Shown: one piece after another, positions 49,699-63,300 of the stretch
Layout: every line of letters begins with the position of its first letter
Numbering within the stretch: position 1 is the stretch's first letter
Virus record (IMG/VR): IMGVR_UViG_3300008111_000027
Coordinates: 62,001-125,300 of that record
Source of the DNA: an uncultured virus (IMG/VR IMGVR_UViG_3300008111_000027)
Lineage: Duplodnaviria > Heunggongvirae > Uroviricota > Caudoviricetes
DNA length: 63,300 nucleotides
Strand: one strand, 5' to 3'
Position numbers and translations under genes: made by a program
The notes under the pieces: model-generated
Seen by the model: only the letters and a program-made list of their open reading frames with translations
Databases searched by the model: none
What the model was told of the DNA's origin: nothing

Positions 49699-51615
49699 TT
49701 AAACTTTTATAAATTGTCTTGTTAATTGTTTATTATAATTATTCAAAATCAGATAATAATTACCTGATGATGCAGAACTCATATCAATTTGTTTGTAGGC
49801 AGTTGTTTCCATATAGTTAGTGGTAACAGAACCAACTTGTTTAATTAGTTGACCTCTATTATCATAGATGGAAACATTCATTGACATGTTTGGGTTGGGA
49901 AATTTTACTTCTAATTCAAACCAACCACCAGTTGGGTTTGGACGAATTGATGCTGTAATTTCATCAATGTCTTGATTCATAGGTGGTGCCATTTTGTACA
50001 TAATAACAGCAACACTACTAACTAAGTCAATATTCAAGTGGTCACCTCTTTCATCGGATGCGTCCATTAATTGTCTAACGTAAATATTACTCACAATATC
50101 ATTATTTCCAATAGGTGAAAATTTTAATTTAAATGGTGTTGCTTGACCAATTAAACCATCTTTAAATTGGTTATTCATACCACCAAATCTAATTGTACCA
50201 GCAGTTGCGTCATGTGTAACGTACTGTAACCATGGACCTCCGTTAAAATTAGATATGATTTCTTCAAATTTAACCTTGTTTTTATCATATTTCATTTCAA
50301 ACTGTAGACCATAATTATTATCACCATTAGTGTTTACATTAAATGGTACGTATATTGGTTGATTACCTGATGATGCGGTATTAGGTATCTCAACATCTAA
50401 TTTACCTTTAAACACCGCCTTAGCTACTAATACACCTGATGAGTTCCATACTCTCGATGAGTAAGTTCTGTCAACATCACCTTGAATAAAGTACTTAATG
50501 TTTACTGTCTTATTAGTTAATCCAACACTATCAGTAATAAAATTGGTGGCGGTTAAATGATTTGGCCAATCATTCCATTGTGTTGAACCTAACACTAATG
50601 AATCATAAACATCAGCGTGGAATGTTCTAATCATGGTTGTGGTGTCAATTTTTTTCATACCACTAACGTTTGCATAAATCAAGTATGGGTCACCACCATC
50701 TAACTTTCCGTTTTGGTTCATATCACCTATTAGATAAGCCAAGCCATTTTTCAAATATTGTTGACCAAATCCTTGGTTTACATCAGTTACTGTATATTCA
50801 TCATATGTTTTTACCGCGTCTGATATTGTCACTGCGTAATCTCTGAAAACTTCCATACTATCCGCGGGGAATCTTACAAGTAATTTATACTTAGTATTTT
50901 TATCTACGTTGTTAAGTGAGTAGAAACCCGCAGTGTCACAAAGTGCTGATGATACAAATGTACCTGTGTTGTATTTTGTACATATAACTGTTGGTCTTCT
51001 ACCATTTAGTTTCATTGTTGGCGGTAATTCAACAACACCACTGATAACCAAGTTACCCAAAAGTTCAAGATGCATGTCTTGAACATCTAAGATTGCAATG
51101 TTATCACCTATTGTAGTACCGTCATATTTGAACATTCGAGCCCAGTTTATTTCAACACTGTCCGCGTCGAAGTTCGATTCAACATCGTTGATGATAAATT
51201 TGTTGTGAATCAAAAAGGTGTCTTGGGTGATTTGAGAACCACTTGACAAAACCAAAAAGTTTCTTGCCACAGTGTAATTTGTATCCGTTGAATATGAGTA
51301 CAAACCAGTTCCCGAACTGTAGCTTGAGTATTTGTAGTTGTTAAAGAACTTAATCGAAAGTGCTGGTGTCATAGTACTCACAGTTGGGTCGACAGTTGTT
51401 GATACGTGAGTGAAAAGTTGTTTTCTATATTGAAAATCAACTTGGAAAGTTCTAACATCAACAGAAGATGCTGGTGTGTATTTAAACACAACATCAAGGG
51501 TGTCACCCCTTTTGATTGTTTTATACGCAACAGGATTACCAATCTGTGGCGTAGTTTGAGAAAACGCGGTCGTCGTAAAAATTAACGCGGTTAGGATAAA
51601 TAATAATTTTTTCAT
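49699..51615 (-). CDS. secreted cohesin/dockerin-like protein with T9SS type A C-terminal sorting domain
   Basis: signal peptide; FQVDFQY and GLQFEMKYD cohesin-like strands; GDMNQNGKLDGGD; PNPT...IYD.RGQLI...SGNYYL...RQFIKV. Confidence 0.72.
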   Translation of the reverse strand: MKKLLFILTALIFTTTAFSQTTPQIGNPVAYKTIKRGDTLDVVFKYTPASSVDVRTFQVDFQYRKQLFTHVSTTVDPTVSTMTPALSIKFFNNYKYSSYSSGTGLYSYSTDTNYTVARNFLVLSSGSQITQDTFLIHNKFIINDVESNFDADSVEINWARMFKYDGTTIGDNIAILDVQDMHLELLGNLVISGVVELPPTMKLNGRRPTVICTKYNTGTFVSSALCDTAGFYSLNNVDKNTKYKLLVRFPADSMEVFRDYAVTISDAVKTYDEYTVTDVNQGFGQQYLKNGLAYLIGDMNQNGKLDGGDPYLIYANVSGMKKIDTTTMIRTFHADVYDSLVLGSTQWNDWPNHLTATNFITDSVGLTNKTVNIKYFIQGDVDRTYSSRVWNSSGVLVAKAVFKGKLDVEIPNTASSGNQPIYVPFNVNTNGDNNYGLQFEMKYDKNKVKFEEIISNFNGGPWLQYVTHDATAGTIRFGGMNNQFKDGLIGQATPFKLKFSPIGNNDIVSNIYVRQLMDASDERGDHLNIDLVSSVAVIMYKMAPPMNQDIDEITASIRPNPTGGWFELEVKFPNPNMSMNVSIYDNRGQLIKQVGSVTTNYMETTAYKQIDMSSASSGNYYLILNNYNKQLTRQFIKV

Positions 51616-52109
51616 AGTATTAGTTTGTTTATTAGGTTTTGAGTTGTTTTCTTTAATGCCGAACTAGCAGATTGTTGATTGAATTTACCACCCTCATCAA
51701 TCATTATGGTTGAGGTTGAAATTTCGGTTGATTTACCTTCCGAAAATTCCTGTTTAATTTTTTTATCACCTTTGTACAATACACCTTTCATTCTTATGAC
51801 GGTGGTTGTTTTGTCTTCGTGAAAAATACTAACCCCCGAGTTAGTCGTTACAATGTCAAAAAATATGAGTTCAACTTTAATTTTGTAGTCTGCTTTATTT
51901 TTATCTGTAATCAGAATTAAACTATCCTGTTCATTGATGATTTCTTCAATTATATTTTTAACACCGAAAGCCAAATTCTTATTTTCGGTGAACGGACCAA
52001 TTTTAATGTTATTGATTACCGTATCAACAACAATAGTTTGGGCATTCAGATTCGAAAATCCAAATGATATTAGAAATAATAATAATATGATGGGCAGTCT
52101 CTTCATCAC
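51612..52109 (-). CDS. secreted protein, possibly CsgG/LptE-like
   Basis: signal peptide; FGVKNIIEE and FNQ..S.A.KK shared with 48054-48812. Confidence 0.55.
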   Translation of the reverse strand: MMKRLPIILLLFLISFGFSNLNAQTIVVDTVINNIKIGPFTENKNLAFGVKNIIEEIINEQDSLILITDKNKADYKIKVELIFFDIVTTNSGVSIFHEDKTTTVIRMKGVLYKGDKKIKQEFSEGKSTEISTSTIMIDEGGKFNQQSASSALKKTTQNLINKLIL

Positions 52110-52146
52110 AAAAAAGAAAAAATGGGGTTATCTAACCCCATAATTT

Positions 52147-52401
52147 TTACTCAGAAACTTCGTCGTCTGATTTCTTTTTATGTGAGAACTTATCTAAAGT
52201 ATCTGCACCCATTCCAATAGCGGTAATGACCATCACCGCGTTTACCAATTCTTCTGATGGTTTAATGTCACCATGTGTAAAAGAATTTGCCATCATGGTT
52301 CCGCAAAGGAATAATGCACCTAAAAGGGCGATTACCGGTTTGATTGAAGTTGACCCTCTTTCATCTTTGAAAAGGTCAATAATCCATTTTTTGAAGTTCA
52401 T
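52147..52401 (-). CDS. small two-TM protein (holin-like)
   Basis: D.RG..S.K, two hydrophobic helices, charged tail. Confidence 0.55.
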   Translation of the reverse strand: MNFKKWIIDLFKDERGSTSIKPVIALLGALFLCGTMMANSFTHGDIKPSEELVNAVMVITAIGMGADTLDKFSHKKKSDDEVSE

Positions 52402-52522
52402 AGTTGTAATTTAGTTTAGTTTATTTATTTGGTTTACTATAAATACCTCGGCAATCGAGATTGTTATATATATTTTTTTAAAAAAATTTCAAACTTTTCT
52501 TGTTTTTCAGCATACTTATTAT

Positions 52523-52530
52523 TATCTTTG
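52523..52530 (+). promoter_or_regulatory. Bacteroidota-type -7 promoter element of tRNA operon 1
   Basis: TATCTTTG matches TAnnTTTG. Confidence 0.7.
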
Positions 52531-52560
52531 TAAAAGATTTTAAAATTAAATAAAACTTCA

Positions 52561-52650
52561 ATGAGACGCTTTACACATACAATGTCATTTACAATCTGTT
52601 CAAAATGGGCGGAGGTGGCTGATATTTGCATGTCCCGAGGTGTCTTGTAA
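52561..52650 (+). CDS. leader peptide 1 (29 aa, MRRFTHTMSFTICSKWAEVADICMSRGVL)
   Basis: ATG..TAA between promoter and terminator; codons match operon 1 anticodons; contains antiterminator TCCCGAGGT. Confidence 0.8.
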   Translation: MRRFTHTMSFTICSKWAEVADICMSRGVL

Positions 52651-52677
52651 GTTGTTTAGTTTAAAACGATATAAAGG

Positions 52678-52706
52678 AACCTCGGGAGAAATCTCGAGGT
52701 TTTTTT
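52678..52706 (+). terminator. attenuator terminator of tRNA operon 1
   Basis: AACCTCGGGA GAAA TCTCGAGGTT + U tract. Confidence 0.88.
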
Positions 52707-52713
52707 GTTTTAT

Positions 52714-52783
52714 GGGCCTGATGTCAACGGCAGACCGTCTGATTTGCAATCAGAACGATTGGGTTCGATTCCCACAGTGTCCA
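52714..52783 (+). tRNA. tRNA-Ala(TGC), acceptor stem imperfect
   Basis: TCTGA TTTGCAA TCAGA arm; G3:U70; GTTCGATTC. Confidence 0.75.
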
Positions 52784-52784
52784 C

Positions 52785-52822
52785 AAATCTGGGTGTCACA
52801 GGTTCAATTCCTGTCGGTACCA
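52785..52822 (+). pseudogene. 3' half of a tRNA, probably tRNA-Phe(GAA)
   Basis: AAA TCTGG GTGTC ACAGG TTCAATT CCTGT CGGTACC A; no 5' half. Confidence 0.65.
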
Positions 52823-52827
52823 CATTT

Positions 52828-52901
52828 GTCTTCGTAGCTCAATTGGTTAGAGCACCACACTTTTAATGTGGGGGTTATGCGTTCGAGTCGCATCGGGGAC
52901 A
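52828..52901 (+). tRNA. tRNA-Lys(TTT)
   Basis: CCACA CTTTTAA TGTGG. Confidence 0.93.
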
Positions 52902-52902
52902 C

Positions 52903-53039
52903 AAAGGTTGATTGGGGAATGATACATCAATATCTCGAGAGTGAATATTGGATGATGTATTCGGAGTTTGCAGATATTCACCTGAAGTAACGCCAATCGT
53001 AAAAGAGGATGTCCACTGAACCATCTTCCTCTTTCCTTT
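52903..53039 (+). ncRNA. unknown structured RNA A
   Basis: AAAGG/CCTTT closing stem, GATTGG/CCAATC, ATACATCA/TGATGTAT, AAGAGGA/TCCTCTT. Confidence 0.5.
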
Positions 53040-53042
53040 CAT

Positions 53043-53115
53043 AGTTCCTTAGCTCAGTTGGGAGAGCGTCTGCCTTACATGCAGAGGGTCGTCGGTTCGA
53101 ATCCGACAGGGACTA
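53043..53115 (+). tRNA. tRNA-Val(TAC)
   Basis: TCTGC CTTACAT GCAGA. Confidence 0.93.
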
Positions 53116-53123
53116 CACAATAC

Positions 53124-53194
53124 ACAGGTGTAGTGAAAGGGTATCATACCGGTCTCCAAAACCGTTGTTGGGAGTTCGAATCTCTCCACCTGTG
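53124..53194 (+). tRNA. tRNA-Trp(CCA)
   Basis: CGGT CTCCAAA ACCG. Confidence 0.9.
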
Positions 53195-53216
53195 CAAACT
53201 TTTAAAAATAAACGAC

Positions 53217-53645
53217 ATGGAAAGAAATGATAACATCAACGCCGTCAAAATGAAATTTGAAGCGGAGAAAATGAAACTAAAAGAAGAGAGGGAAAGAATG
53301 ATTAGGAATCATTGGGAGAATTTACCAAAGATTAATAATCCCGAAGATGTCCCAACTCTTCCAAGAGTGGATGAAAAAGAATGGAGAGAGTTCTATGTTC
53401 CGAAACTAATTGACGCAGGTGCGATTCCTAAAAAAGATTTAGTAAATGGTCAAATTTATATTGGTGAACATAGAAATACCACAATCGCAAGATGGAATCA
53501 AGAGACAAACAAATTTATACACATGAGATATAAGTTTGGTTGGAGAGAGGATGATTGTAACCATTTTGAAGATGATGATGGATTTGCATTGTTCGTTCCA
53601 ATTAGATTGGGGACCCAAGAAGAATGGGATGAACGAATTAAGTAA
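53217..53645 (+). CDS. hypothetical protein within tRNA operon
   Basis: ATG 53217; the ORF-track extension overlaps tRNAs. Confidence 0.7.
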   Translation: MERNDNINAVKMKFEAEKMKLKEERERMIRNHWENLPKINNPEDVPTLPRVDEKEWREFYVPKLIDAGAIPKKDLVNGQIYIGEHRNTTIARWNQETNKFIHMRYKFGWREDDCNHFEDDDGFALFVPIRLGTQEEWDERIK

Positions 53646-53646
53646 T

Positions 53647-53721
53647 GGTTCTTTGGTGTAATGGATAGCACGCAACGCTACGGACGTTGAAGTAAGGGTT
53701 CGAGTCCTTTAGGAATCACCA
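53647..53721 (+). tRNA. tRNA-Arg(ACG)
   Basis: CAACG CTACGGA CGTTG; encoded CCA. Confidence 0.92.
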
Positions 53722-53722
53722 C

Positions 53723-53796
53723 GGTCCTGTACCCAAGTGGCTTAAGGGGGGAGTCTGCAAAACTCTTATTCGGTGGTTCGAATCCACTCGGGACCT
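53723..53796 (+). tRNA. tRNA-Cys(GCA)
   Basis: GGAGT CTGCAAA ACTCT; U73. Confidence 0.92.
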
Positions 53797-53858
53797 CAAT
53801 ATAAGGTGTGAGACTTATAATGGTTCATTATAAGGTTTGAACCTTATAATTTATAAAT

Positions 53859-53936
53859 GGTAGATATAGTTCAGTTGGTTAGAACGTCTGATTGTGGTCC
53901 AGAAGGTCGTCGGTTCGAATCCGATTATTTACCCCA
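53859..53936 (+). tRNA. tRNA-His(GTG)
   Basis: loop TTGTGGT; G-1 and C73; CCA. Confidence 0.9.
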
Positions 53937-53939
53937 AAT

Positions 53940-54016
53940 TGGAATATAGCTCAATTGGTTAGAGCATTCGTCTGATACGCGAAAGGTTATAGGTTCGATT
54001 CCTATTATTCCAACCA
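53940..54016 (+). tRNA. tRNA-Ile(GAT)
   Basis: TTCGT CTGATAC GCGAA; CCA. Confidence 0.92.
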
Positions 54017-54021
54017 AACAT

Positions 54022-54099
54022 TGCGGGATGCGTAGAAAGTGGTCATCTCGTCAGTCTCATAAGCTGAAGTTCCCGGTTCGAGTCCGGGTCCCGCAACCA
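54022..54099 (+). tRNA. tRNA-Met(CAT), probably elongator
   Basis: TCAGT CTCATAA GCTGA; CCA. Confidence 0.85.
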
Positions 54100-54139
54100 A
54101 ACATTTTGAAATATGGAATTTACTTCTTATATTTTATTT

Positions 54140-54150
54140 GTTCTTTGAAA
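54140..54150 (+). promoter_or_regulatory. boxA-like antitermination element
   Basis: GTTCTTTGAAA; same motif at 55385, 61092, 62841. Confidence 0.6.
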
Positions 54151-54155
54151 TATAT

Positions 54156-54227
54156 CGTGGGGTAGAGCAGTGGTAGCTCGTTAGGCTCATAACCTAAAGG
54201 TCGTCGGTTCGAATCCGACCCCCGCAA
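54156..54227 (+). tRNA. tRNA-fMet(CAT), initiator-like
   Basis: C1:A72 mismatch; TTAGG CTCATAA CCTAA. Confidence 0.85.
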
Positions 54228-54233
54228 CAAATG

Positions 54234-54316
54234 GTCATAATTAGGGTCGAGCCACATCTTGCCACGGTTATGACAAGGGTCAGAAGGAACAGAGGTGGCC
54301 GTGACTACTCTGACCC
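54234..54316 (+). ncRNA. unknown two-hairpin RNA B
   Basis: GTCATAA/TTATGAC and GGGTCAGA/TCTGACCC stems with complementary loops. Confidence 0.5.
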
Positions 54317-54322
54317 ACTATT

Positions 54323-54396
54323 GCCTCCTTAGCTCAGTTGGCCAGAGCAGCTGATTTGTAATCAGCGGGTCGTTGGTTCGAATCCGACAGGAGGCT
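54323..54396 (+). tRNA. tRNA-Thr(TGT)
   Basis: GCTGA TTTGTAA TCAGC. Confidence 0.93.
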
Positions 54397-54402
54397 CCGA
54401 TT

Positions 54403-54474
54403 GGTCTCATAGTTAATCGGCTATAATATCGCCCTGTCACGGCGAAGTGCCGGGTTCGATTCCCGGTGGGACCG
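54403..54474 (+). tRNA. tRNA-Asp(GTC)
   Basis: TCGCC CTGTCAC GGCGA. Confidence 0.93.
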
Positions 54475-54477
54475 CAA

Positions 54478-54683
54478 TGAGTAAGAGATACTCAGAGTCT
54501 TCGAATCAAGACTTTAAGAATGATTCCGCAGAAAGTCTACGGCGCGAGTGGGACTTCATGGGAACAAAGGAGAGCGACACACCTCCTCCCAGTAGTGTTG
54601 ACTTTTTTTAACGGGGACGCCCTTCAGGTTGTTTGAAAGAAAATAAACCGAAATGACTACTCACCGTAATCTCAGGTGGGGTA
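54478..54683 (+). ncRNA. unknown multi-hairpin RNA C
   Basis: series of hairpins (TGAGTA/TACTCA, AGTCTT/AAGACT, TACTCACC/GGTGGGGTA), GC-richer than the genome, no ORF. Confidence 0.5.
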
Positions 54684-54686
54684 ATT

Positions 54687-54774
54687 GGAGAGTTGGTAGA
54701 GTTGGTTTATTGCACCTGACTTGAAATCAGGAGAACTCGTGAGGGTTCCGGGGGTTCGAATCCCTCACTCTCCT
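54687..54774 (+). tRNA. tRNA-Ser(TGA)
   Basis: CCTGA CTTGAAA TCAGG; long variable arm. Confidence 0.92.
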
Positions 54775-54780
54775 CAAATT

Positions 54781-54852
54781 GGCCCGGTCGTCTATCGGTT
54801 AGGACACGTCCCTTTCACGGATGAAAGCGGGGTTCGATTCCCCGTCGGGCTA
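54781..54852 (+). tRNA. tRNA-Glu(TTC)
   Basis: CGTCC CTTTCAC GGATG. Confidence 0.92.
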
Positions 54853-54880
54853 CACTGAAATTAAATTAAAAAAAACCAAT

Positions 54881-55123
54881 ATGTTAGAAAAAATTTTAGA
54901 ACAATACGAAGATGAACAAATCTTAATTGCTGATGGATTTGATGATGCGGTAATAGGAATTGAAACATCTTCAATGAGATTAATCTATTCTGTTGAGAAG
55001 TGTATCACTATACTTATGAATCAAGGAATGGATATGACAGAAGCGGTAGAATATTTTGAATTTAATGTTTCCGGTTCTTACGTTGGTGAAAAGACTCCAA
55101 TATGGTGTGAAGATTTATTTTAA
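54881..55123 (+). CDS. conserved phage hypothetical protein
   Basis: ADGFDDAVIG...EAVEYFEFNV.G.YVGE.TP. Confidence 0.75.
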   Translation: MLEKILEQYEDEQILIADGFDDAVIGIETSSMRLIYSVEKCITILMNQGMDMTEAVEYFEFNVSGSYVGEKTPIWCEDLF

Positions 55124-55162
55124 TTTTTTTTTAAAAAAACTTGGAAATTAAAAAACTTTTTG

Positions 55163-55170
55163 TATCTTTG
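55163..55170 (+). promoter_or_regulatory. Bacteroidota-type -7 promoter element of tRNA operon 2
   Basis: TATCTTTG; TTG about 20 nt upstream. Confidence 0.7.
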
Positions 55171-55187
55171 TGATAGTTATAAACAAA

Positions 55188-55292
55188 ATGATGAAAATGG
55201 TTTACATACAACAACCCTTGAACAACCCACTAAGTGGTAATGGGAGAGGTATATATTTATGTGACCCATGTTCGGAGTTTTTAAAAGTGTAA
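55188..55292 (+). CDS. leader peptide 2 (34 aa, MMKMVYIQQPLNNPLSGNGRGIYLCDPCSEFLKV)
   Basis: ATG..TAA between promoter and terminator; codons match operon 2 anticodons; contains antiterminator GTTCGGAGTTTT. Confidence 0.8.
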   Translation: MMKMVYIQQPLNNPLSGNGRGIYLCDPCSEFLKV

Positions 55293-55313
55293 GGAACTTA
55301 ACCTACTAATAAG

Positions 55314-55346
55314 AAGACCCGAACTCAAAAAAAGTTCGGGTTTTTT
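55314..55346 (+). terminator. attenuator terminator of tRNA operon 2
   Basis: AAGACCCGAACT CAAAAAA AGTTCGGGTTTT + U tract. Confidence 0.88.
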
Positions 55347-55412
55347 GTTTTTAAGATTTTGTTGTTTATATTTTGATTAGATTTGTTCTTTGACATATTG
55401 GAATTGGTAAAT

Positions 55413-55497
55413 GCCGAGGTGATGGAATGGTAGACATGAGGGACTTAAAATCCCTTGGACAGTAATGTTCGTGTGGGTTCGACTCCCATCCTCGGTA
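55413..55497 (+). tRNA. tRNA-Leu(TAA)
   Basis: AGGGA CTTAAAA TCCCT; long variable arm. Confidence 0.93.
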
Positions 55498-55499
55498 CA

Positions 55500-55700
55500 A
55501 AAATGAAAAACTCCTTACAGAGGACGGATTAGCACCGTTGAAAGAAACTTTGGCTCTTGGGATTAGCTACCCAAATGAGTTACATGACCCAAAGTGAACT
55601 GTGATGGACCCTGCTCTGATGTGCACGTCAACAGGTGGACAGTAAACTATGTCCAATCAAATCTACAACTACGGTGAGCGTAGAAGGAGGTTTTCATTTT
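55500..55700 (+). ncRNA. unknown ~200-nt structured RNA D
   Basis: AAAATGAAAAACTCCTT / AAGGAGGTTTTCATTTT closing stem enclosing several hairpins. Confidence 0.6.
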
Positions 55701-55703
55701 AAT

Positions 55704-55775
55704 GGGCCCATAGTTAAAGGGATATAACTTCTCACTTCTAATGAGATGTTCCAAGTTCGAGTCTTGGTGGGCCTA
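55704..55775 (+). tRNA. tRNA-Arg(TCT)
   Basis: TCTCA CTTCTAA TGAGA. Confidence 0.92.
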
Positions 55776-55777
55776 CT

Positions 55778-55917
55778 AAGATAGTGGTCACTCTTACAAT
55801 GAAAGTCGACAAAGTAGTTGTAAGGTTCATAGTGTTCATCACCCTCGGCCGGTGCACTGATAAAACTCAGAAGAAGCCGTTAAGATTGGAGCGAGACGGG
55901 TACTCCATCACTATCTT
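55778..55917 (+). ncRNA. unknown ~140-nt structured RNA E
   Basis: AAGATAGTG/CACTATCTT closing stem; CTTACAA/TTGTAAG; TGGAG/CTCCA. Confidence 0.55.
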
Positions 55918-55924
55918 TTTTAAT

Positions 55925-55998
55925 AGGGAAGTAGCGCAGTTGGTTAGCGCACCTGGTTTGGGACCAGGGGGTCGCAGGTTCGAGTCCTGTTTTCCCTA
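55925..55998 (+). tRNA. tRNA-Pro(TGG)
   Basis: CCTGG TTTGGGA CCAGG. Confidence 0.93.
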
Positions 55999-56003
55999 CA
56001 AAT

Positions 56004-56075
56004 TCCTTGATAGCTCAGTGGTAGAGCAAACGGCTGTTAACCGTTGGGTCCCAAGTTCGAATCTTGGTCGGGGAG
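56004..56075 (+). tRNA. tRNA-Asn(GTT)
   Basis: AACGG CTGTTAA CCGTT. Confidence 0.93.
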
Positions 56076-56082
56076 CAAAAAA

Positions 56083-56146
56083 ATCGCTGATGGAAACATC
56101 GAAGGTGTGTAATGCTAGCAACACCGTAGGTTAAGCGATGTCCTAC
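56083..56146 (+). ncRNA. unknown small junction/pseudoknot RNA F
   Basis: ATCGCT/AGCGAT, GATG-GAAA-CATC, GGTGT/ACACC, GTAGG/CCTAC. Confidence 0.45.
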
Positions 56147-56151
56147 ACTTT

Positions 56152-56232
56152 GCCGAAGTGGTGGAATGGTAGACACACGACACTTAGGATGTCGCGCGTA
56201 ATTGCGTGGGGGTTCGAGTCCCTTCTTCGGTA
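56152..56232 (+). tRNA. tRNA-Leu(TAG)
   Basis: CGACA CTTAGGA TGTCG. Confidence 0.92.
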
Positions 56233-56238
56233 CAACAA

Positions 56239-56321
56239 TGAAAGGTGGGTGAGTGGTTAAAACCGGCAGACTGTAAATTTGCTCTCTTCGGGGTACGGGG
56301 GTTCGAATCCCTCCCTTTCAA
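56239..56321 (+). tRNA. tRNA-Tyr(GTA)
   Basis: GCAGA CTGTAAA TTTGC; long variable arm. Confidence 0.9.
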
Positions 56322-56335
56322 CAAAAAGTAATAGT

Positions 56336-56887
56336 ATGGAAAGAAATAACATTATTAAAAGTATGATGGATTCAATCACTCCTGAAATGGAGGAAAGGTT
56401 CAAACAAGAAAGAATCGAGTGGAAAAATAGTTTAACCGCAGAATATCAACTTGGTCATTATGTTGGTTTGGAAATCGTTCACAATTATCTCCCAACCCTA
56501 TCAACTGATATGTTACAAACTCGTAATGTCATTGAGGTATCTGAAGAAGATTCATTAGAGAATGAAAGATTGGACACCGAATGGTATGTAACAACACAAC
56601 ATGGTGGGGAATGGAATGGTAAGGATGAAAGTGGCAATAAAGAAAAATGGGACTTATACCACCAACACAATAAAATGTTGGAAAGGAAATACCTACCCAA
56701 TCCTCTTTATTGTCACATGGGTGTTTTGAACATTCGAGATATGGATGATTTCAAAAAAGGTTTAAGATTTGCATTATGGGATTGTGATATGTGTTCTTAT
56801 AACATCGAACTTGAGAACATAAAAATCTATGACGAAGAACATTTAATGAGTACGATTATAGAGTTTTCGTTGGATTTGGTGGTGTAG
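56336..56887 (+). CDS. hypothetical protein within tRNA operon
   Basis: ATG 56336; stop lies inside the next tRNA. Confidence 0.7.
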   Translation: MERNNIIKSMMDSITPEMEERFKQERIEWKNSLTAEYQLGHYVGLEIVHNYLPTLSTDMLQTRNVIEVSEEDSLENERLDTEWYVTTQHGGEWNGKDESGNKEKWDLYHQHNKMLERKYLPNPLYCHMGVLNIRDMDDFKKGLRFALWDCDMCSYNIELENIKIYDEEHLMSTIIEFSLDLVV

Positions 56888-56954
56888 CTCAATTGGTGAG
56901 AGCAGGACGCTTATACCGTCAAGGTTATGGGTTCAAATCCCGTCACCACTACCA
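56878..56954 (+). tRNA. tRNA-Ile(TAT)
   Basis: GACG CTTATAC CGTC; CCA. Confidence 0.88.
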
Positions 56955-56956
56955 TT

Positions 56957-57030
56957 GGTCCCTTAGCTCAGTTGGTTAGAGCACCCGACTCATAATCGGT
57001 AGGTCCACGGTTCAAGCCCGTGAGGGACCA
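56957..57030 (+). tRNA. tRNA-Ile2(CAT), lysidine type (inferred)
   Basis: CCGA CTCATAA TCGG; GGTCCCTTAGCTCAG body typical of Ile2. Confidence 0.8.
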
Positions 57031-57055
57031 CGAGATATTTATATATAAAAAAATC

Positions 57056-57508
57056 ATGGGAATTGAATTAAAAAAGAAAAAACAACTTATCGAAAGATTA
57101 AACAAAAGATTATTATCTGAAGCCGAAATGGAGTGTCCTAAAGCAACTCAAGATTTAGAGTTGAACACTAATAATAGAGACAAATCAATAAAAGCGGATT
57201 ATATAAAATATGGTCCACTTAATATTGATGAACCCGGTGATTATTGGGAAATGGTTGCATCCGATTGGAATACGACTGTTGAAGCCGCTAAAAAATCACT
57301 ATGTGGTAATTGTGTTGCATTTGATATATCACCAAGAATGGATGAATGTATGCCAGGTTCGGTTTCTGATGATAGTGGTAGATTAGGATACTGTTGGATG
57401 CATCACTTTAAATGTCACTCCGCAAGAACATGTAAAACATGGGCAAAAGGTGGTCCGATTACCGAAAATACGGTGTCATATGAGTGGCAACAAAAAAATC
57501 AAAAATAA
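57056..57508 (+). CDS. Cys/His-rich hypothetical protein
   Basis: CGNCVAFD, GYCWMHHFKCHSARTC; late-promoter motif 57036-57043. Confidence 0.72.
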   Translation: MGIELKKKKQLIERLNKRLLSEAEMECPKATQDLELNTNNRDKSIKADYIKYGPLNIDEPGDYWEMVASDWNTTVEAAKKSLCGNCVAFDISPRMDECMPGSVSDDSGRLGYCWMHHFKCHSARTCKTWAKGGPITENTVSYEWQQKNQK

Positions 57509-57577
57509 TATCATCATGTGGTCGCACCCTTAACTCCAAAACCTGTTAAGGAAATCGTTATGGGAAGACCACTCCAC

Positions 57578-57649
57578 GCGATAGTCGTATAACGGTTATT
57601 ATACCACCTTGCCAAGGTGGGGACGATGGTTCAATTCCATTCTGTCGCT
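57578..57649 (+). tRNA. tRNA-Gly(GCC)
   Basis: CCACC TTGCCAA GGTGG. Confidence 0.92.
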
Positions 57650-57696
57650 CACTTTTATCGGACAACCAATATTTATTATTACATAATGGTTGTCCA

Positions 57697-58101
57697 ATGA
57701 GAAATAGAGAAAAAAAAGAAAAACAATGTTTGAATTGTGGTTGTGAAATTCCTAATAGGAATCTTTACTGTAATAATAAGTGTCAATTCGAATATCAAAG
57801 AAAAAATATTTTCAAATCTTTAGAGGAAAATAATTTTGAAAGATATACAAGATGTGACACAATCCACGAGATAACAAAAAAATATTTGATAGAAAAATTT
57901 GGTGAAAAATGTATGGTTTGTGAATGGGATAAAGTGAATGAACATACAGGGATAGTCCCAATCCAAATTAATCATATAGATGGTAACCCACATAATCATG
58001 ATTTATCAAATGTTGAGTTACTCTGTCCTAACTGTCATTCTTTAACAGAATTTTTTGGTCGAAGAGGTAAGGGTAGGAAATGGAGATATCAAAGTAAGTA
58101 G
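57697..58101 (+). CDS. HNH homing endonuclease
   Basis: CLNC..YC..KC; C..C; HIDGN..N....N..LLCPNCH. Confidence 0.88.
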   Translation: MRNREKKEKQCLNCGCEIPNRNLYCNNKCQFEYQRKNIFKSLEENNFERYTRCDTIHEITKKYLIEKFGEKCMVCEWDKVNEHTGIVPIQINHIDGNPHNHDLSNVELLCPNCHSLTEFFGRRGKGRKWRYQSK

Positions 58102-58165
58102 ACCTTAAAAAGGGCCCTTCCGTTGCGTACGAAAACGGCTTGTTGGGCCCGGGTCTACCTTTTAA

Positions 58166-58237
58166 GCGAATATCGTATAACGGTCATTACTTCAGACTTC
58201 CAATCTGAAGATGCCAGTTCGATTCTGGCTATTCGCT
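58166..58237 (+). tRNA. tRNA-Gly(TCC)
   Basis: TCAGA CTTCCAA TCTGA. Confidence 0.92.
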
Positions 58238-58242
58238 CATAT

Positions 58243-58313
58243 TGCCCTTTCGTCTAATGGCAGGACATGTGGTTTTGGTCCACAGTGTGGAGGTTCGAAT
58301 CCTTCAGGGGCAA
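58243..58313 (+). tRNA. tRNA-Gln(TTG)
   Basis: TGTGG TTTTGGT CCACA; U1:A72. Confidence 0.9.
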
Positions 58314-58334
58314 CTAATCAATTCCAATATAACA

Positions 58335-58420
58335 GGAAGGTTACCCAAGTTGGTGAAGGGGTCAGTTTGCTAAACTGATAGGGTGTCACAGCCGCGAGGG
58401 TTCGAGCCCCTCACCTTCCG
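58335..58420 (+). tRNA. tRNA-Ser(GCT)
   Basis: TCAGT TTGCTAA ACTGA; long variable arm. Confidence 0.92.
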
Positions 58421-58447
58421 CAGAGTACTTATAGAATATAGAATGGT

Positions 58448-58909
58448 ATGCAAAAATTTAGAACATTGTACGGAACACCTATAACCGACGTTATAGATTA
58501 CATCAAAGATTATTTGGTGGATAAATCTGATGTGGAGATACTGATTGGTTCAGATTCACAATCGTTTAGTAATTCCAAAACGGTTTACGGGGTGGTTATT
58601 GCACTTTACACAAAAGGTAAGGGTGCACACGTATTGTGCACTAAAGACACAACACCATTTGAAAAAGATACATCAAGTAGACTAATGACTGAAGTGTGGA
58701 AGGCGGTTGAAGTTGCTGAACACTTGAGAAACAATGGTTTACCAAAAGCCACTTGGATTGATATTGACCTTAATCCTGACCCCAAATACAAATCAAATAA
58801 GGTTTTGAGACAAGCCGTTGGTTTGGTTGAGGGCATGGGGTACAAGGTTAGATACAAACATGCGGGCGCTATGGTTACTTACAGTGCCAACCATTTAGTA
58901 AGGATTTAA
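58448..58909 (+). CDS. RNase H-like YkuK (DUF458) family protein
   Basis: IGSDSQ, GKGAHV, RL..EV, IDIDLNPD...SN. Confidence 0.8.
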   Translation: MQKFRTLYGTPITDVIDYIKDYLVDKSDVEILIGSDSQSFSNSKTVYGVVIALYTKGKGAHVLCTKDTTPFEKDTSSRLMTEVWKAVEVAEHLRNNGLPKATWIDIDLNPDPKYKSNKVLRQAVGLVEGMGYKVRYKHAGAMVTYSANHLVRI

Positions 58910-59006
58910 AAATTTTTTTTGATTTTTTTTAAAAAAAACTTTGTTTTTAGAAAAAGTGTGCATATCTTTGTACCACTACAATAAATTACAACATTAATAC
59001 GACATT

Positions 59007-61079
59007 ATGACAACAAGGAATTTAGCAGCATTTCAAAAAGGTTTGGTATGTTCACCAAACGACGGTCAAGATAATAGAATCGCTGTAGCGACCGTACAAT
59101 CCCACTTAATGCAATGGGGTTACATGTTAGACGAAGATGCTTTCTTCGCGTTATCCAAATCAGATTTATCGTTTATTCAAAACTTCAATGACGAGGTATT
59201 GAATCATTTGAAAAATGTAATGGGGGGTAATCGTAATTACCAACCACTATATAAGAATTTCCCACAAGAAGTGATGGTTATGTCCGACTTCGAATTGTAT
59301 ATGAACGCAATTATACACTATTGGAGTAACGGTCAATGGGAACCATCAACTCATACTTATGAAAAAGAAATCAAGTTTGAGAAAATCAAATACAACTTGA
59401 TTAAGTATGGTACTTCTGAAAGATTCTCAAAAATCTTCACTGACTTGGTATCAATCAACACATCATTAACACCTCAAGACCTTGAGATTGTTAAATGGTT
59501 TGTATCAAGTGGTGAAACATTGATTTTTCCTGACACAATTCCTTTCAAAGAGAATTTGTGTACACTCGCGGGAATGGGAATCGAGGGATTACCAGTAAAG
59601 ACTTCAACCGACGTTTTAAGAATAGCCGTTCATCTTTCAGGTGGAGACATCAGTTTACCTAAAGTTCCTGAAAAGGAAATTAGACTAAACAGATGGTCTT
59701 CTACCAAAGGAGTAAATCCTGAAAGAGAAAAGTTCAAATTCAAGAAATTCACTCGTAAAGAGAGAAAATACATCTTGGGTTTACTTGAGAACACAAACTG
59801 TGACCCAAGAGAAATGGTTTTAAGAGACCAACGATGGGTTCGTTTAGGTGAAATCTTACACCCGGGTGAGTATAAAAACCAATTCCCTAAATCTTTTGAC
59901 GCGTTCAATAAGATTAGAAACGAGAAAGTTAAATCTTGGTTCTCTCTTGTAAATGAAGGTTTCAATAAAGGTATAGAGAATGGTTTGAGAGTATTGTCTC
60001 AAAGACCCGGTGAATTCTCTCGTCGATTAGATTGGTTGGTTCGTACATATCCACAAGATATTGAAACAATCATGAAATTCTTCGGAGAAGCGGTAAAAGG
60101 TACATCGAACAAAGTATTGTTTGAAGTTTACACTCACTTTGAAGGTCGTACTGAACCTAAAACAAATAGGTCGGTTATGATTAAAGGAGCGAGAAAACGT
60201 ACCGAATTACCATCACTACCAGCAATCCCTAAAGAGATTGTGGAAACCATCCACTCTAAATTATTTGAAACACTTAGAGATAAGTTTTCATTAATGGAAT
60301 CTTTGGGTAACTGTTGGATTGATGAGGAATTAAAAAAGATTCCTCTCCCAACCAACATGAGAAGTATGAACTTCTCAACCAAACCCATCATTAGAGGTCA
60401 GCGAGTTCCACTCGATAACCCTGATGCAAAAGTTATTAGACCATTTGTTCATTGGATGGACAAGCGTGGTTCTGAAGACTTGGATTTGAGTGTTACATTT
60501 GTTGGTGAGAAAGTGTCAGAAGTACTATCTTTCAGTAATTTGAGAGTCGGTAATTCTTGTCACTCGGGGGATGTGAGACACAGACAGGGTCCTTGTGCGG
60601 AGTACATCGACATCGACATTAAAGATGCGTTAAGTCGTGGATTCAAGTACGGAGTCATTGATGTGAGAAACTACAATGGAGGTACATTAAGTTCACTTGA
60701 AACATCCTTTGGTATCATGGAGAGAGAACACCCTGAATCAAATAAAACGTGGTTACCTGAGACAATTTCAAATTGTCAATCATTAGAATCTGAGTCATCA
60801 AACACTTTGATTGCGATTATTGACTTTGAAACCAAAGAGTACATCATGTTGGACATTGATTCAAGTGGTTTTGTAACCGCCAGGAGCGACTTCAAAAACA
60901 CCCTTAAAGTAATTCAACAATACGCTGAGTTACCAAAAGTAAGTGTTTATGACCTTATTCTTCTACACGTAGAAGGTCGAGGAAAACAAGTTACTCTTGA
61001 CGAGAATGTGGATACACATTTCAAGTACGAGGACTTCTGTTACTCTTATGAAGAGACAGGTAAATTGATGGGTGTCTAA
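59007..61079 (+). CDS. large protein with C-terminal TerD-like domain
   Basis: PLYKNFP..V, IPFKENL, TDVLR, LHPGEY, RPGEFSRRLD, DLDLS, HSGDV, AEYIDID; promoter TATCTTTG 58963-58970. Confidence 0.75.
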   Translation: MTTRNLAAFQKGLVCSPNDGQDNRIAVATVQSHLMQWGYMLDEDAFFALSKSDLSFIQNFNDEVLNHLKNVMGGNRNYQPLYKNFPQEVMVMSDFELYMNAIIHYWSNGQWEPSTHTYEKEIKFEKIKYNLIKYGTSERFSKIFTDLVSINTSLTPQDLEIVKWFVSSGETLIFPDTIPFKENLCTLAGMGIEGLPVKTSTDVLRIAVHLSGGDISLPKVPEKEIRLNRWSSTKGVNPEREKFKFKKFTRKERKYILGLLENTNCDPREMVLRDQRWVRLGEILHPGEYKNQFPKSFDAFNKIRNEKVKSWFSLVNEGFNKGIENGLRVLSQRPGEFSRRLDWLVRTYPQDIETIMKFFGEAVKGTSNKVLFEVYTHFEGRTEPKTNRSVMIKGARKRTELPSLPAIPKEIVETIHSKLFETLRDKFSLMESLGNCWIDEELKKIPLPTNMRSMNFSTKPIIRGQRVPLDNPDAKVIRPFVHWMDKRGSEDLDLSVTFVGEKVSEVLSFSNLRVGNSCHSGDVRHRQGPCAEYIDIDIKDALSRGFKYGVIDVRNYNGGTLSSLETSFGIMEREHPESNKTWLPETISNCQSLESESSNTLIAIIDFETKEYIMLDIDSSGFVTARSDFKNTLKVIQQYAELPKVSVYDLILLHVEGRGKQVTLDENVDTHFKYEDFCYSYEETGKLMGV

Positions 61080-61107
61080 ACCCACCCATCAGTTCTTTGA
61101 AATATTA

Positions 61108-61502
61108 TATGTGGCTATGTGAGCCATTGAGAGGATAGTCAACTGTCCATTACATCAAACCACGGAGTGGTTCTGTTTTGGACCTTAGCGGTGACAAAAG
61201 TATCAATGCAAACGTCTTACTTCTAACACACAACTATCAGATACATCGTTAGACACACAATCTCCACATAACTTCTTAGACGGCTATGTATTGGGTTACT
61301 TCTATCAAACAATTGGATGTTAAACCACCCGCACTCTTTCCGTTAATCATCTTAAGTGGCTATCTATCAACTTACTTCTAAAATTTAAGCTAAAAATCAA
61401 AAATCAGTTGTAGTCTTTCCACTTTTAAAATACACATGGCTATGTGTTCAGTTACTTCTACTTTGACTATTAATCAAAACCAATTACTGACACAGTTTCC
61501 AT
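61108..61502 (+). ncRNA. array of four related structured RNAs (GGCTAT...TTACTTCTA...T(T/C)TCC)
   Basis: units 61108-61270, 61279-61344, 61354-61424, 61436-61502 with covarying stems; boxA-like motif at 61092. Confidence 0.75.
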
Positions 61503-61544
61503 TTTTTAAAAACAACAAAATAAACAACATTTAAAACAACAATT

Positions 61545-61991
61545 ATGTCAACAAAGACCACCGATGAAAAAGTAAAAGAACTATTTGATTTAGTTCAAAG
61601 TAAAAAATTAGCAATTGAAAAAGCCGAAAGGCCTTGTTGGAAAACCAGTGGTAACTTCGGTTACTCAGCAAATTCCGCACATGACAGAACATCGATTCCA
61701 ACTATTACAGATGTACGTAAAATCGTAGAGATGTACGCATTTCTTATGGAAAGAAAAGATAAATCCGAATCTGCAGCCAAAGAACTTGGTGTGAATTATA
61801 AATTCACTTGGTTAGGATTTACTGTCGATGAGTGGAAAGACGATTTTCAAACAAGAGTTAATCAAATTTCAATTCAAGAAAAACGTAAAGAACTTTCTGA
61901 AATCGAATCTCGTTTGAACTCATTAATTTCACCAGAATTAAAAGCTCAAATGGAATTGGAAGCAATTACAGAGTTACTTAACGAAAAGTAA
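61545..61991 (+). CDS. hypothetical coiled-coil protein
   Basis: ORF directly after the RNA array; F.WLGFTV.EW..D. Confidence 0.75.
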   Translation: MSTKTTDEKVKELFDLVQSKKLAIEKAERPCWKTSGNFGYSANSAHDRTSIPTITDVRKIVEMYAFLMERKDKSESAAKELGVNYKFTWLGFTVDEWKDDFQTRVNQISIQEKRKELSEIESRLNSLISPELKAQMELEAITELLNEK

Positions 61992-62050
61992 TTTCTTGGT
62001 TTTTTGAAACCAAGTGGTGGAGTCGAACCGTAAAACCGGTCGTCCCGAGG

Positions 62051-62081
62051 AAGGGTTGGGTAACCGACCCTTTCTTTTTTT
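62051..62081 (+). terminator. intrinsic terminator
   Basis: AAGGGTTGG GTAA CCGACCCTT + U tract. Confidence 0.75.
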
Positions 62082-62107
62082 GAATATTTTTTAGTATATT
62101 TACATAT

Positions 62108-62827
62108 ATGAGAATTGTTTGTATATCCGACACCCATTCCTTACATGAAGGAATGTTATATAACATCCCAAATGGGGATATATTAATCCATGCTGGTGAT
62201 TGTACAAACGTCGGTCGACAAAACGAGGTGAGAGAGTTTATTGAATGGTTTCAAAACATTGAAGGTTTTACCTATAAAATTTTCATTGCGGGTAATCATG
62301 ATTTTGCGTTTGAAAGGGAACCAACATGGTTAAATTTATATTTGGACCCAAACATATTGGCGGAACATAATGTTACATATTTGGAAGACGGTGAATTAGA
62401 AATAGTTAGTTCGGAATTTTCAAGACCTATAAAAATATATGGTTCACCATGGCAACCTGAATTTTTTGATTGGGCATTCAACTTACCAAGAAATGGGGAT
62501 GTCTTGAAATCGAGATGGGATGACATACCTAACAATACTGACATATTAATTACTCACGGTCCACCACATGGAATTAGAGATTTTACACCTAATAACTTAC
62601 AGGTTGGATGTGAATTATTAAGAGAACGTGTTGAAGTTTTAAAACCACTTTTACATGTTTTTGGTCATATACATGGTGCTTATGGTATTGTGGAAATGAA
62701 TGATACTGTATTTGTAAATGCATCAACGTGTACTGAAAGGTATCAACCAATAAATAAACCATGGGTTTTTGATTTAACAGAAATTGATGGTATATTTACA
62801 ATAAATTTTATAGACGAAGAAAATTAA
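62108..62827 (+). CDS. metallophosphoesterase (calcineurin-like)
   Basis: SDTH, HAGD, GNHD, THGPP, GHIH. Confidence 0.92.
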   Translation: MRIVCISDTHSLHEGMLYNIPNGDILIHAGDCTNVGRQNEVREFIEWFQNIEGFTYKIFIAGNHDFAFEREPTWLNLYLDPNILAEHNVTYLEDGELEIVSSEFSRPIKIYGSPWQPEFFDWAFNLPRNGDVLKSRWDDIPNNTDILITHGPPHGIRDFTPNNLQVGCELLRERVEVLKPLLHVFGHIHGAYGIVEMNDTVFVNASTCTERYQPINKPWVFDLTEIDGIFTINFIDEEN

Positions 62828-62854
62828 CTATCTTTGTCCTGTTCTTTGACTTAT

Positions 62855-63253
62855 GGGGGTGTATGGAATCGATTGGCGTACATATGGTAAATGGGCACGT
62901 AGTCAGACTTCATCTATGACTTTAATCCATGGTGGAAATTTTTAAGCGGCAACGTTTACAACAACATGGAAGTAGCAGGTCTTCTTGCAACTTCTAAAGT
63001 TGCGGCCTAATTGGTCGTAACTGACGGGTCGATGGACACATAACCTTGGAACAGAAGTCCTTACGGTGTGATACCACCTTAGAGTGTCAAAGGTCTCGTT
63101 CAGAGTGCTACCTATTAAAGTGAACTCGACACAGTTGATGGTAACGATGTCAAAATAGGAACCACCTATTTGTCGGTTATGAATAATCGAATAAACGTGT
63201 AGTCCATTTATGGTATTGCGAGCAAGACGCGGGTTCGAAACCCGCCACCTCCA
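62855..63253 (+). ncRNA. ssrA: tmRNA
   Basis: GGGGGTG/CACCTCC-A acceptor with G3:U, T-arm GCGGG TTCGAAA CCCGC, tag ORF 62948-63010 GNVYNNMEVAGLLATSKVAA*. Confidence 0.92.
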
Positions 63254-63261
63254 CAAAAAAG

Positions 63262-63287
63262 AAACCCACCAATTGGTGGGTTTTTTT
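63262..63287 (+). terminator. intrinsic terminator after tmRNA
   Basis: AAACCCACC AATT GGTGGGTTT + U tract. Confidence 0.85.
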
Positions 63288-63300
63288 GTTTATTCTTTAG

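Follow-up and report, generated by a model that had tools for sequence, protein, structure and literature searches.

Short open reading frames codon-matched to downstream tRNA genes as candidate transcription attenuators in an uncultured phage and its relatives

The transfer RNA (tRNA) genes of the uncultured virus record IMGVR_UViG_3300008111_000027 (IMG/VR) lie in a stretch of 63,300 nucleotides (nt), hereafter the window, which forms the second half of the 125.3-kb record (CheckV completeness 41%). Two units were found to head the tRNA region, each running from a Bacteroidota-type promoter through a short open reading frame (ORF) and an intrinsic terminator into tRNA genes, as had been proposed in a preliminary description of the same DNA, and the ORFs (29 and 34 codons), hairpins, and T-tracts of both units were located (Table 1). 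The codons of each ORF are mostly those read by the tRNAs of its own block, and the end of each ORF is complementary to the 5′ arm of the terminator that follows it. We consider it likely that each unit would act as a ribosome-mediated (leader-peptide) transcription attenuator controlling read-through into the phage tRNA block, the tRNA set probably being made when ribosomes read the leader codons slowly. This interpretation, already offered in the preliminary description, is supported by codon covariation and permutation tests, by covariation of the antiterminator, and by ORFs that stay open with a coding-type substitution pattern.

The codon content of the two window leaders was evaluated against the phage's own codon usage (36,374 codons), under a strict wobble scheme in which U34 reads A or G, G34 reads C or U, A34 reads U, C, or A, and C34 reads G. 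Leader 1 was scored with the tRNA set of the related locus L002, whose leader is 100% identical, since tRNA-Phe is truncated in the window. Of its 28 codons, 21 match block 1 (expected fraction 0.44; binomial P = 9e-4), or 19/28 with the window's own ARAGORN tRNA set, and 22 of the 33 codons of leader 2 match block 2 (expected fraction 0.38; P = 9e-4). Every tRNA species is sampled, 13/13 by leader 1 (simulation mean 7.0, P < 2e-4) and 12/12 by leader 2 (mean 7.4, P = 0.0016). The claims that the leader codons are those read by the leader's own operon, and that each tRNA specificity of the operon is represented, were thus upheld. Amino acids split between the blocks were also said to sort correctly between the leaders; a table of leader against block-specific codons agrees with this overall (19, 3; 9, 20; Fisher P = 1.5e-4), while the sorting is imperfect, codon 2 of leader 1 being AGA and leader 2 containing TCG. 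The unbroken matched runs, originally put at 22 and 19 codons, shorten to 14 and 14 under strict wobble, lengths reached by 15 and 6 of 200,000 simulations, respectively. The run of 19 in leader 2 is recovered only if Pro-UGG reads CCC, and leader 1 gives a run of 24 (codons 3-26) only if tRNA-Phe, an Ala-like tRNA, and four-way wobble are all admitted.

The same design was found in related phages. With the protein encoded in block 1 (53217-53642) as query, 43 viral-contig loci (given here as L numbers) were collected, at 100% to 42% identity, and were scanned for a terminator no more than 260 nt upstream of a tRNA, with an ATG ORF whose end lay -12 to 110 nt ahead of the terminator. Units of this kind numbered 60 and came from the window and 41 of the 43 related loci (42 of 44 sources); together they encode 39 distinct peptides. 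Many leader families share no sequence with the window leaders, only the design of an ORF with matched codons. A 23-codon leader containing R-P-Q-Q-H-P-Q sits before Arg, Pro, His, Gln, and Gln tRNAs. Leu, Arg, and Leu tRNAs are preceded by a leader that has eight codons for Leu and four for Arg, and Ala and Arg tRNAs by one that has four codons for each; one 32-codon leader samples 19/19 tRNA species. The longest-ORF rule chose the wrong frame in L017 (GTG start), L019, L025, and L035b; for L035b, the first ATG after the promoter box was taken over a longer alternative frame, a choice that raises its match.

For statistical purposes, a set of 14 units was composed with one unit per leader family, after near-identical copies, homologous variants, and one non-leader had been dropped, and a set of 19 was formed from these 14, four homologous variants, and the non-leader as a control. 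In the 14 units, 206 of 368 codons match under strict wobble, compared with 115.0 ± 11.9 when operons are permuted (maximum 170; 0/200,000 permutations reach the observed value), and lenient wobble gives 222/368 against 124.1 ± 13.2 (0/200,000). The larger set behaves similarly, with 277/529 matches against 161.0 ± 13.5 (0/200,000). The leaders sample 115 of 120 tRNA species, compared with ~64.7 expected from codon usage. Five phages carry two units, and in these the codons specific to a leader's own block outnumber those of the sibling block by 128 to 29, with Fisher P < 0.05 in 5/5 pairs. Two predictions of the preliminary description, that leader codons would covary with downstream anticodons in relatives and that the match would exceed what phage codon usage provides, were therefore both borne out. 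Within amino-acid boxes that a block serves only in part, the cognate codon is chosen in 74 of 101 cases, compared with 53.6 expected (2/200,000 simulations as high), which shows that leaders correspond to their blocks at the level of the anticodon and not just of the amino acid. The matched fraction is highest in the ORF core (165/242 codons), compared with 16/42 in codons 2-4 and 25/84 in the last six codons, the pattern predicted by the geometry of an attenuator; AAA is the second codon in 7 of the 14 leaders.

A terminator before Ile and Ser tRNAs in L030 and L032-L034 was considered as a leader unit and rejected, as it ends a gene of more than 150 codons; this was the non-leader control, and 3 of its 35 codons match. 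That the codon match is a by-product of chance or composition is scarcely credible. Phage tRNAs favor codons common in phage genes, and any phage ORF will partly match, as the expected fractions for the two window leaders reflect, but such an origin is rejected by the permutation, codon-usage, and within-phage tests, and the control, in which a long gene and its terminator happen to precede tRNAs, matches poorly.

Changes in block composition are accompanied by changes in leader codons. In the leader-2 family, ACR (Thr) codons number 2, 2, and 2 where tRNA-Thr(UGU) lies in block 2 (L017, L021, and L023), and 0, 0, 0, 0, 0, 1, and 1 in the seven loci where it lies in block 1. GTR codons in leader 1 number 0, 1, 0, and 0 where tRNA-Val is gone from block 1, and 1-3 elsewhere. 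In L028, the block that follows the leader-1 homologue starts with Pro, Asn, Trp, and Gln; in keeping with this tRNA content, Asn, Pro, and Gln codons have become frequent in the middle of its leader, and the His, Lys, and CGN codons there are gone.

Comparisons within families showed that the reading frames are maintained. The leader-1 ORF is open in 15/15 members (28-33 codons, with an in-frame 6-nt indel), and the leader-2 ORF in 10/10 members (32-36 codons). Among close relatives, variable sites at codon positions 1, 2, and 3 number 4, 7, and 13 in leader 1, and 7, 5, and 15 in leader 2. The leader ORFs thus display a coding-type substitution pattern, and they are inferred to be translated. 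Untranslated structured RNAs, whether small RNAs or T-box-like elements that bind tRNAs via codon-like triplets, are a very improbable alternative. The leader-1 region does have a minimum free energy (MFE) of -59.9 kcal/mol (z = -7.05), folding into a long hairpin, with a sequence-conserved inner stem, plus the terminator (z = -2.96 for the leader-2 fold), and its 5′ half is strongly conserved at the nucleotide level; in a ribosome-mediated attenuator, these helices may equally correspond to the upstream protector or pause hairpin (1:2 pairing). Untranslated RNAs would not, however, account for the maintenance of an ATG-to-stop frame in every member of both families, the in-frame indels, and the excess of third-position change, and unrelated families have only the ORF and its matched codons in common. 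Moreover, no Rfam family, the T-box included, matches either leader (52500-52720 and 55130-55360) at E <= 1. The T-box riboswitch has no match at E <= 1 in 51500-63300 either, and the only match to Leu_leader, at 63223-63287, scores 23.7 bits, under the threshold of 50.

Complementarity between the end of each ORF and the 5′ arm of the terminator, as the preliminary description had claimed, was confirmed in both window units. The best complement of the 5′ arm is the antiterminator strand at the 3′ end of the ORF, with a duplex energy of -19.4 kcal/mol for unit 1 (0/500 shuffles as good) and -14.3 kcal/mol for unit 2 (2/500). In 18 of 19 units, the best partner of the 5′ arm lies at -24 to +1 nt from the stop codon, though the arm sequences differ between families; the exception is L033c, in which it lies at +5 to +12. 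The antiterminator energy is equaled by no more than 5% of shuffles in 12/19 units. In an alignment of 15 leader-1 family sequences, 99.1% of cells in the antiterminator helix are paired, 3 of 8 pairs carry compensatory changes, and the covariation score is 0.257, compared with 0.165 ± 0.022 after shuffling (0/500) and no more than 0.09 when the helix was slid. For the terminator of the same family, pairing is kept in 95.9% of cells and compensatory change is seen in 3 of its 13 pairs, and the same three 5′-arm positions covary with both the antiterminator and the terminator partners. Covariation of the two alternative pairings, suggested beforehand as a check, is hence present in the leader-1 family.

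Folding of the transcript up to the terminator loop gave pairing of the 5′ arm with the ORF end at a probability of ~0.9 (0.92 for leader 2). A simulated ribosome mask with the A site in the last ~8 codons lowered this to 0.16-0.65 in leader 1 and 0.12-0.63 in leader 2, the value of 0.12 being obtained with the A site at codons 32-34; this is the behavior that the attenuator model requires. In the leader ORFs (the four wrong-frame picks and the control excluded), 19-35 nt separate the stop codon from the terminator stem, so that a terminating ribosome cannot melt the terminator itself. The Bacteroidota-type sigma-A promoter consensus consists of a -33 TTG and a -7 TAnnTTTG, with ~19-21 nt between them; this pattern was found at both leaders and is conserved in relatives, and the promoters are predicted on this basis. 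The pattern alone says little, because the bare 8-mer box occurs in the window at the expected frequency (97 observed, 96.7 expected). A consensus terminator scan listed terminator 2 only.

A race between ribosome and polymerase would join these elements. A strong host-type promoter would drive transcription toward the terminator while a ribosome translates the leader, where a codon decoded by a tRNA of the downstream block generally appears a single time. If all codons were read fast, the ribosome would come to occupy the last six to eight codons and cover the antiterminator, the terminator would form, and transcription would stop. If any sampled codon were slow, its cognate tRNA being scarce, cleaved, or uncharged, the ribosome would lag, the antiterminator would pair with the 5′ arm of the terminator, and the polymerase would enter the tRNA genes. 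In this direction of response, the new phage tRNAs would speed decoding and turn the unit off again, giving a closed feedback loop on tRNA supply, one per block. Since most codons are present once, a unit would sum small delays over the whole codon set of its block; in the leaders of small blocks, the few codons are repeated, as in classical leaders.

On balance, we lean toward a broader form of this proposal, in which every tRNA block of large Bacteroidota phages would be governed by such a closed-loop "decoding speedometer", and the exact shortfall would switch on the block that replaces it. The physiological trigger might be a host pool that poorly fits the phage codons, decay of host tRNAs during infection, or cleavage by anticodon nucleases. 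It belongs to the same proposal, and is favored to the same slight degree, that leaders and tRNA cassettes co-evolve as modules, such that a leader could be read as the manifest of its block.

It is quite improbable that the leaders respond, by way of uncharged tRNA, to the supply of amino acids and so report starvation in general rather than the abundance or integrity of tRNAs. Classical leader-peptide attenuators (trp, his, leu, thr, and ilv) respond to charged-tRNA levels, and charging and abundance are inseparable in sequence data. More tRNA would give no relief of amino-acid starvation, however, and the output would therefore mismatch the input. The choice of synonymous codons follows the anticodons of the block, and isoacceptors of one amino acid are divided between the two leaders of one phage, both of which point to tRNA species as the sensed quantity.

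Several observations weigh against the attenuator interpretation. Under strict wobble, 7/28 codons of leader 1 and 11/33 of leader 2 are unmatched; TTT codons persist in leader 1 though tRNA-Phe is truncated in the window, and in L021 and L023, where tRNA-Thr now lies in block 2, leader 1 still has 3 Thr codons. Its first ~18 codons (52575-52632) are near-invariant at the nucleotide level, more than codon sampling needs, across relatives in which the neighboring protein is at ~55% identity; this segment forms an inner hairpin in the MFE structure, and is under another constraint, which may be a polymerase pause hairpin or the peptide itself. The antiterminator energy is unremarkable in 7/19 units (>5% of shuffles as good), and a partition-function occupancy simulation failed to beat 12 shuffles in about half of the 19 units. 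The latter measure is noisy because A/T-rich stem extensions inflate it, and the switch was assessed by duplex energies and positions in its place. With most codons present once, sensitivity to a single tRNA may be low compared with that of tandem-codon leaders. Two contigs from one RNA library each bridge a terminator into the first tRNA (52631-52787, with no differences, and 55181-55428, with four differences) and give the interpretation a weak hint of support, as neither ends nor levels are visible in them and carry-over of DNA is possible. The four RNA runs consist of assembled contigs with small shares of the sequence words, in which uncovered parts, depth, and contig ends are uninformative, and a protein gene (53232-53543) is uncovered in all four and unusable as a silent-stretch control. 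Finally, a conserved 17-mer, or the TAnnTTTG box of the leader-2 family, may drive transcription independently of the attenuator.

The last point underlies a further alternative, in which transcription of the tRNA blocks begins mainly at start sites of their own and the promoter, short ORF, and terminator yield a separate short transcript, for instance a trans-acting RNA or peptide, with at most minor regulated read-through. This is unlikely, though the motif does occupy suggestive positions. Its full form in the relatives, GTTCTTTGACATATTGG, lies 11-14 nt before the 5′ ends of many tRNAs, and 23 of 31 distinct copies across the loci are within 30 nt of a tRNA. In the 125-kb record there are four copies only, all at or beside stable-RNA genes: three precede tRNA-Met (54156), tRNA-Leu (55413, downstream of terminator 2), and the transfer-messenger RNA (tmRNA) by 1-15 nt, and the fourth, at 61093, is followed by nothing recognizable (fold z = 0.2, no convincing ORF). 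In the leader-2 family, a TAnnTTTG box stands 0-8 nt upstream of the motif and downstream of the terminator, and the TTTG of the T-tract lies ~20 nt before this box. In the leader-1 family, by contrast, the first tRNA begins 3-10 nt past the T-tract, leaving no room for a promoter, and the gap between terminator and tRNA is <50 nt in most families. The spacing between box and motif varies while the distance from motif to tRNA is fixed, so that a processing signal fits as well as a promoter; the motif may be either an internal promoter or a signal for precursor processing. A separate transcript would also leave unexplained both the tracking of block by leader codons and the covarying antiterminator. 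Should the motif be a promoter, the attenuators would tune expression rather than gate it. The preliminary description held that the leaders gate the tRNA operons; attenuation is supported by the present analysis, whereas "gate" may be too strong a word, given the 17-mer and the TAnnTTTG box between terminator and tRNAs. The term "tRNA operons" likewise stands for the tRNA blocks themselves, which were confirmed, and understates their content, as five protein genes and the conserved motif also lie inside.

The proposed mechanism is itself a textbook one, and what would be new are the kind of genes controlled, the extent of multiplexing, and its occurrence in a virus. The thr leader holds Thr and Ile codons, and the ilvGMEDA leader Ile, Leu, and Val codons. 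The phage units share with these multivalent enterobacterial attenuators a short promoter-proximal ORF with regulatory codons for two or more amino acids, antiterminator and terminator structures that exclude each other, an antiterminator overlapped by the terminating ribosome, and an intrinsic terminator directly before the regulated genes. They differ in regulating tRNA genes rather than biosynthetic enzymes, in sampling up to 19 tRNA species with mostly one codon each and not in tandem runs, in a synonymous choice that follows anticodons, in their Bacteroidota-type phage promoters, and in lacking an Rfam leader match. To our knowledge, ribosome-mediated attenuators all regulate genes for amino-acid biosynthesis or synthetases; the genes downstream of the phage leaders are of neither kind, comprising 25 tRNA genes and a few small phage ORFs. 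In Escherichia coli pheST, a translation-apparatus gene stands under a leader (pheM) rich in cognate codons, with a loop closed on decoding capacity, as would be the case here, but pheM uses a single amino acid, and its regulated product is a synthetase, cellular and not viral. T-box riboswitches, too, read tRNA status through an antiterminator/terminator switch before translation-related genes; they bind one uncharged tRNA directly without a ribosome, whereas the phage units have an ORF and many codons and no T-box match.

The tRNA clusters of T4, T5, and huge phages resemble the present ones in being arrays interspersed with small ORFs and homing endonuclease genes. In the portions of the literature available to us, no described cis-regulatory sensor for phage tRNA clusters was found, nor any account of leader-peptide control of tRNA genes, phage or other. 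A DNA search of cultured and deposited phages gave tRNA-level matches only. The closest protein match in INPHARED was LR756501, an unannotated 735-kb uncultured phage (44% protein identity), which had no tRNA in the 40-kb stretch examined and gives no test of the design; with one marker protein as query, no cultured phage-host pair carrying such a unit was found in INPHARED.

The genes of the window include those for a portal, a terminase, a major head protein, and a DNA polymerase. All 25 ARAGORN tRNAs of the record, together with the tmRNA, lie within 52828-63254 on the + strand. The Ala(TGC)-like tRNA that follows terminator 1 has an imperfect acceptor stem and was missed by ARAGORN, being detected by the Rfam model only; a regular tRNA-Ala(tgc) is called by ARAGORN at the equivalent place in L006, L008, L015, L019, and L025. 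The adjacent 66-nt deletion removes the 5′ part of tRNA-Phe(GAA) and leaves its 3′ part, while the otherwise 100%-identical contigs L002-L005 keep this tRNA intact; the loss may be a natural variant or an assembly artefact. Block 1 contains one protein gene (53217-53645), and block 2 contains three, together with a freshwater-1 RNA (RF02979; 55600-55661, + strand; 84.7 bits, gathering score 72) between tRNA-Leu and tRNA-Arg. Long unexplained spacers separate tRNAs at 52903-53042, 54229-54322, 54476-54686, and 55777-55924. Suppressor-type tRNAs with the anticodon CTA (reading TAG) or TTA (reading TAA) were called in relatives (L007:17976, L012:18478, L015:16558, and L023:14212; L020:2558 and L042:3788), and none was called in the window.

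The tmRNA (62829-63254, + strand; called by ARAGORN, Rfam 80.8 bits) is provided with a separate TATCTTTG box and encodes an unusual tag peptide of 20 residues, and a metallophosphoesterase gene lies just 5′ of it. About 10 kb upstream of the tRNA region, a gene for a PNK-like ATPase (phrog_2071/505) adjoins one for an Rnl1-like RNA ligase (phrog_562; 41580-43072, + strand). In T4, a PNK and Rnl1 pair repairs cleaved tRNA, and the presence of such a pair in the window agrees, but no more than that, with a phage that suffers from tRNA damage.

Table 1. Positions of the leader units, tRNA blocks, and associated features in the window.
Feature	Position	Strand	Description
Predicted promoter 1	52500-52530	+	TTG, 20-nt spacer, TATCTTTG at 52523-52530; kept in leader-1 relatives
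Leader ORF 1	52561-52650	+	29 codons, ATG start, MRRFTHTMSFTICSKWAEVADICMSRGVL
Antiterminator strand 1	52632-52647	+	Inside last six codons of ORF 1
Intrinsic terminator 1	52675-52711	+	Hairpin 52675-52704, 13-bp stem, GAAA loop, T-tract to 52711
Ala(TGC)-like tRNA	52714-52783	+	3 nt past T-tract 1; Rfam tRNA model 31.8 bits
tRNA-Phe(GAA) remnant	52784-52827	+	66-nt deletion relative to L002 and L006 (alignment)
tRNA block 1	52828-54853	+	Lys, Val, Trp, Arg(ACG), Cys, His, Ile(GAT), Met x2, Thr, Asp, Ser(TGA), Glu
Predicted promoter 2	55141-55170	+	TTG, 19-nt spacer, TATCTTTG at 55163-55170; kept in relatives
Leader ORF 2	55188-55292	+	34 codons, MMKMVYIQQPLNNPLSGNGRGIYLCDPCSEFLKV
Antiterminator strand 2	55269-55283	+	Near end of ORF 2
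Intrinsic terminator 2	55313-55352	+	Hairpin 55313-55345, 13-bp stem, 7-nt loop, T-tract to 55352
Box followed by conserved motif	55378-55398	+	TAGATTTG box, then motif TTCTTTGACATAT; 15 nt before tRNA-Leu
tRNA block 2	55413-58421	+	Leu(TAA), Arg(TCT), Pro, Asn, Leu(TAG), Tyr, Ile(TAT), Met, Gly(GCC), Gly(TCC), Gln, Ser(GCT)
Motif core	54141-54153, 55386-55398, 61093-61105, 62842-62854	+	TTCTTTGA[CA]ATAT; full form in relatives given in the text
Small protein genes among the tRNAs	53217-53645, 54881-55123, 56336-56887, 57056-57508	+	No assigned function
HNH endonuclease gene	57697-58101	+	Within block 2

The expression of phage tRNA arrays and their sorting into blocks have so far been without a mechanistic explanation. 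A codon-matched attenuator for each block would mean that tRNAs are supplied on demand, and that the quantity sensed is the decoding speed of specific codons. If the interpretation is true, these units would be the first known cis-regulatory sensor for viral tRNA genes and would surpass all known attenuators in multiplexing, as 32 codons can sample as many as 19 tRNA species; a textbook mechanism would then apply to another class of regulated genes, and with many more inputs than before. An annotation rule would follow, by which the leader peptide predicts the tRNA block, and synthetic biology might draw on the design for compact, programmable devices that sense how specific codons are decoded. 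For the phages themselves, such units could provide a means to detect and compensate the loss of tRNAs, including that caused by tRNA-cleaving defenses of the host, without a protein sensor.

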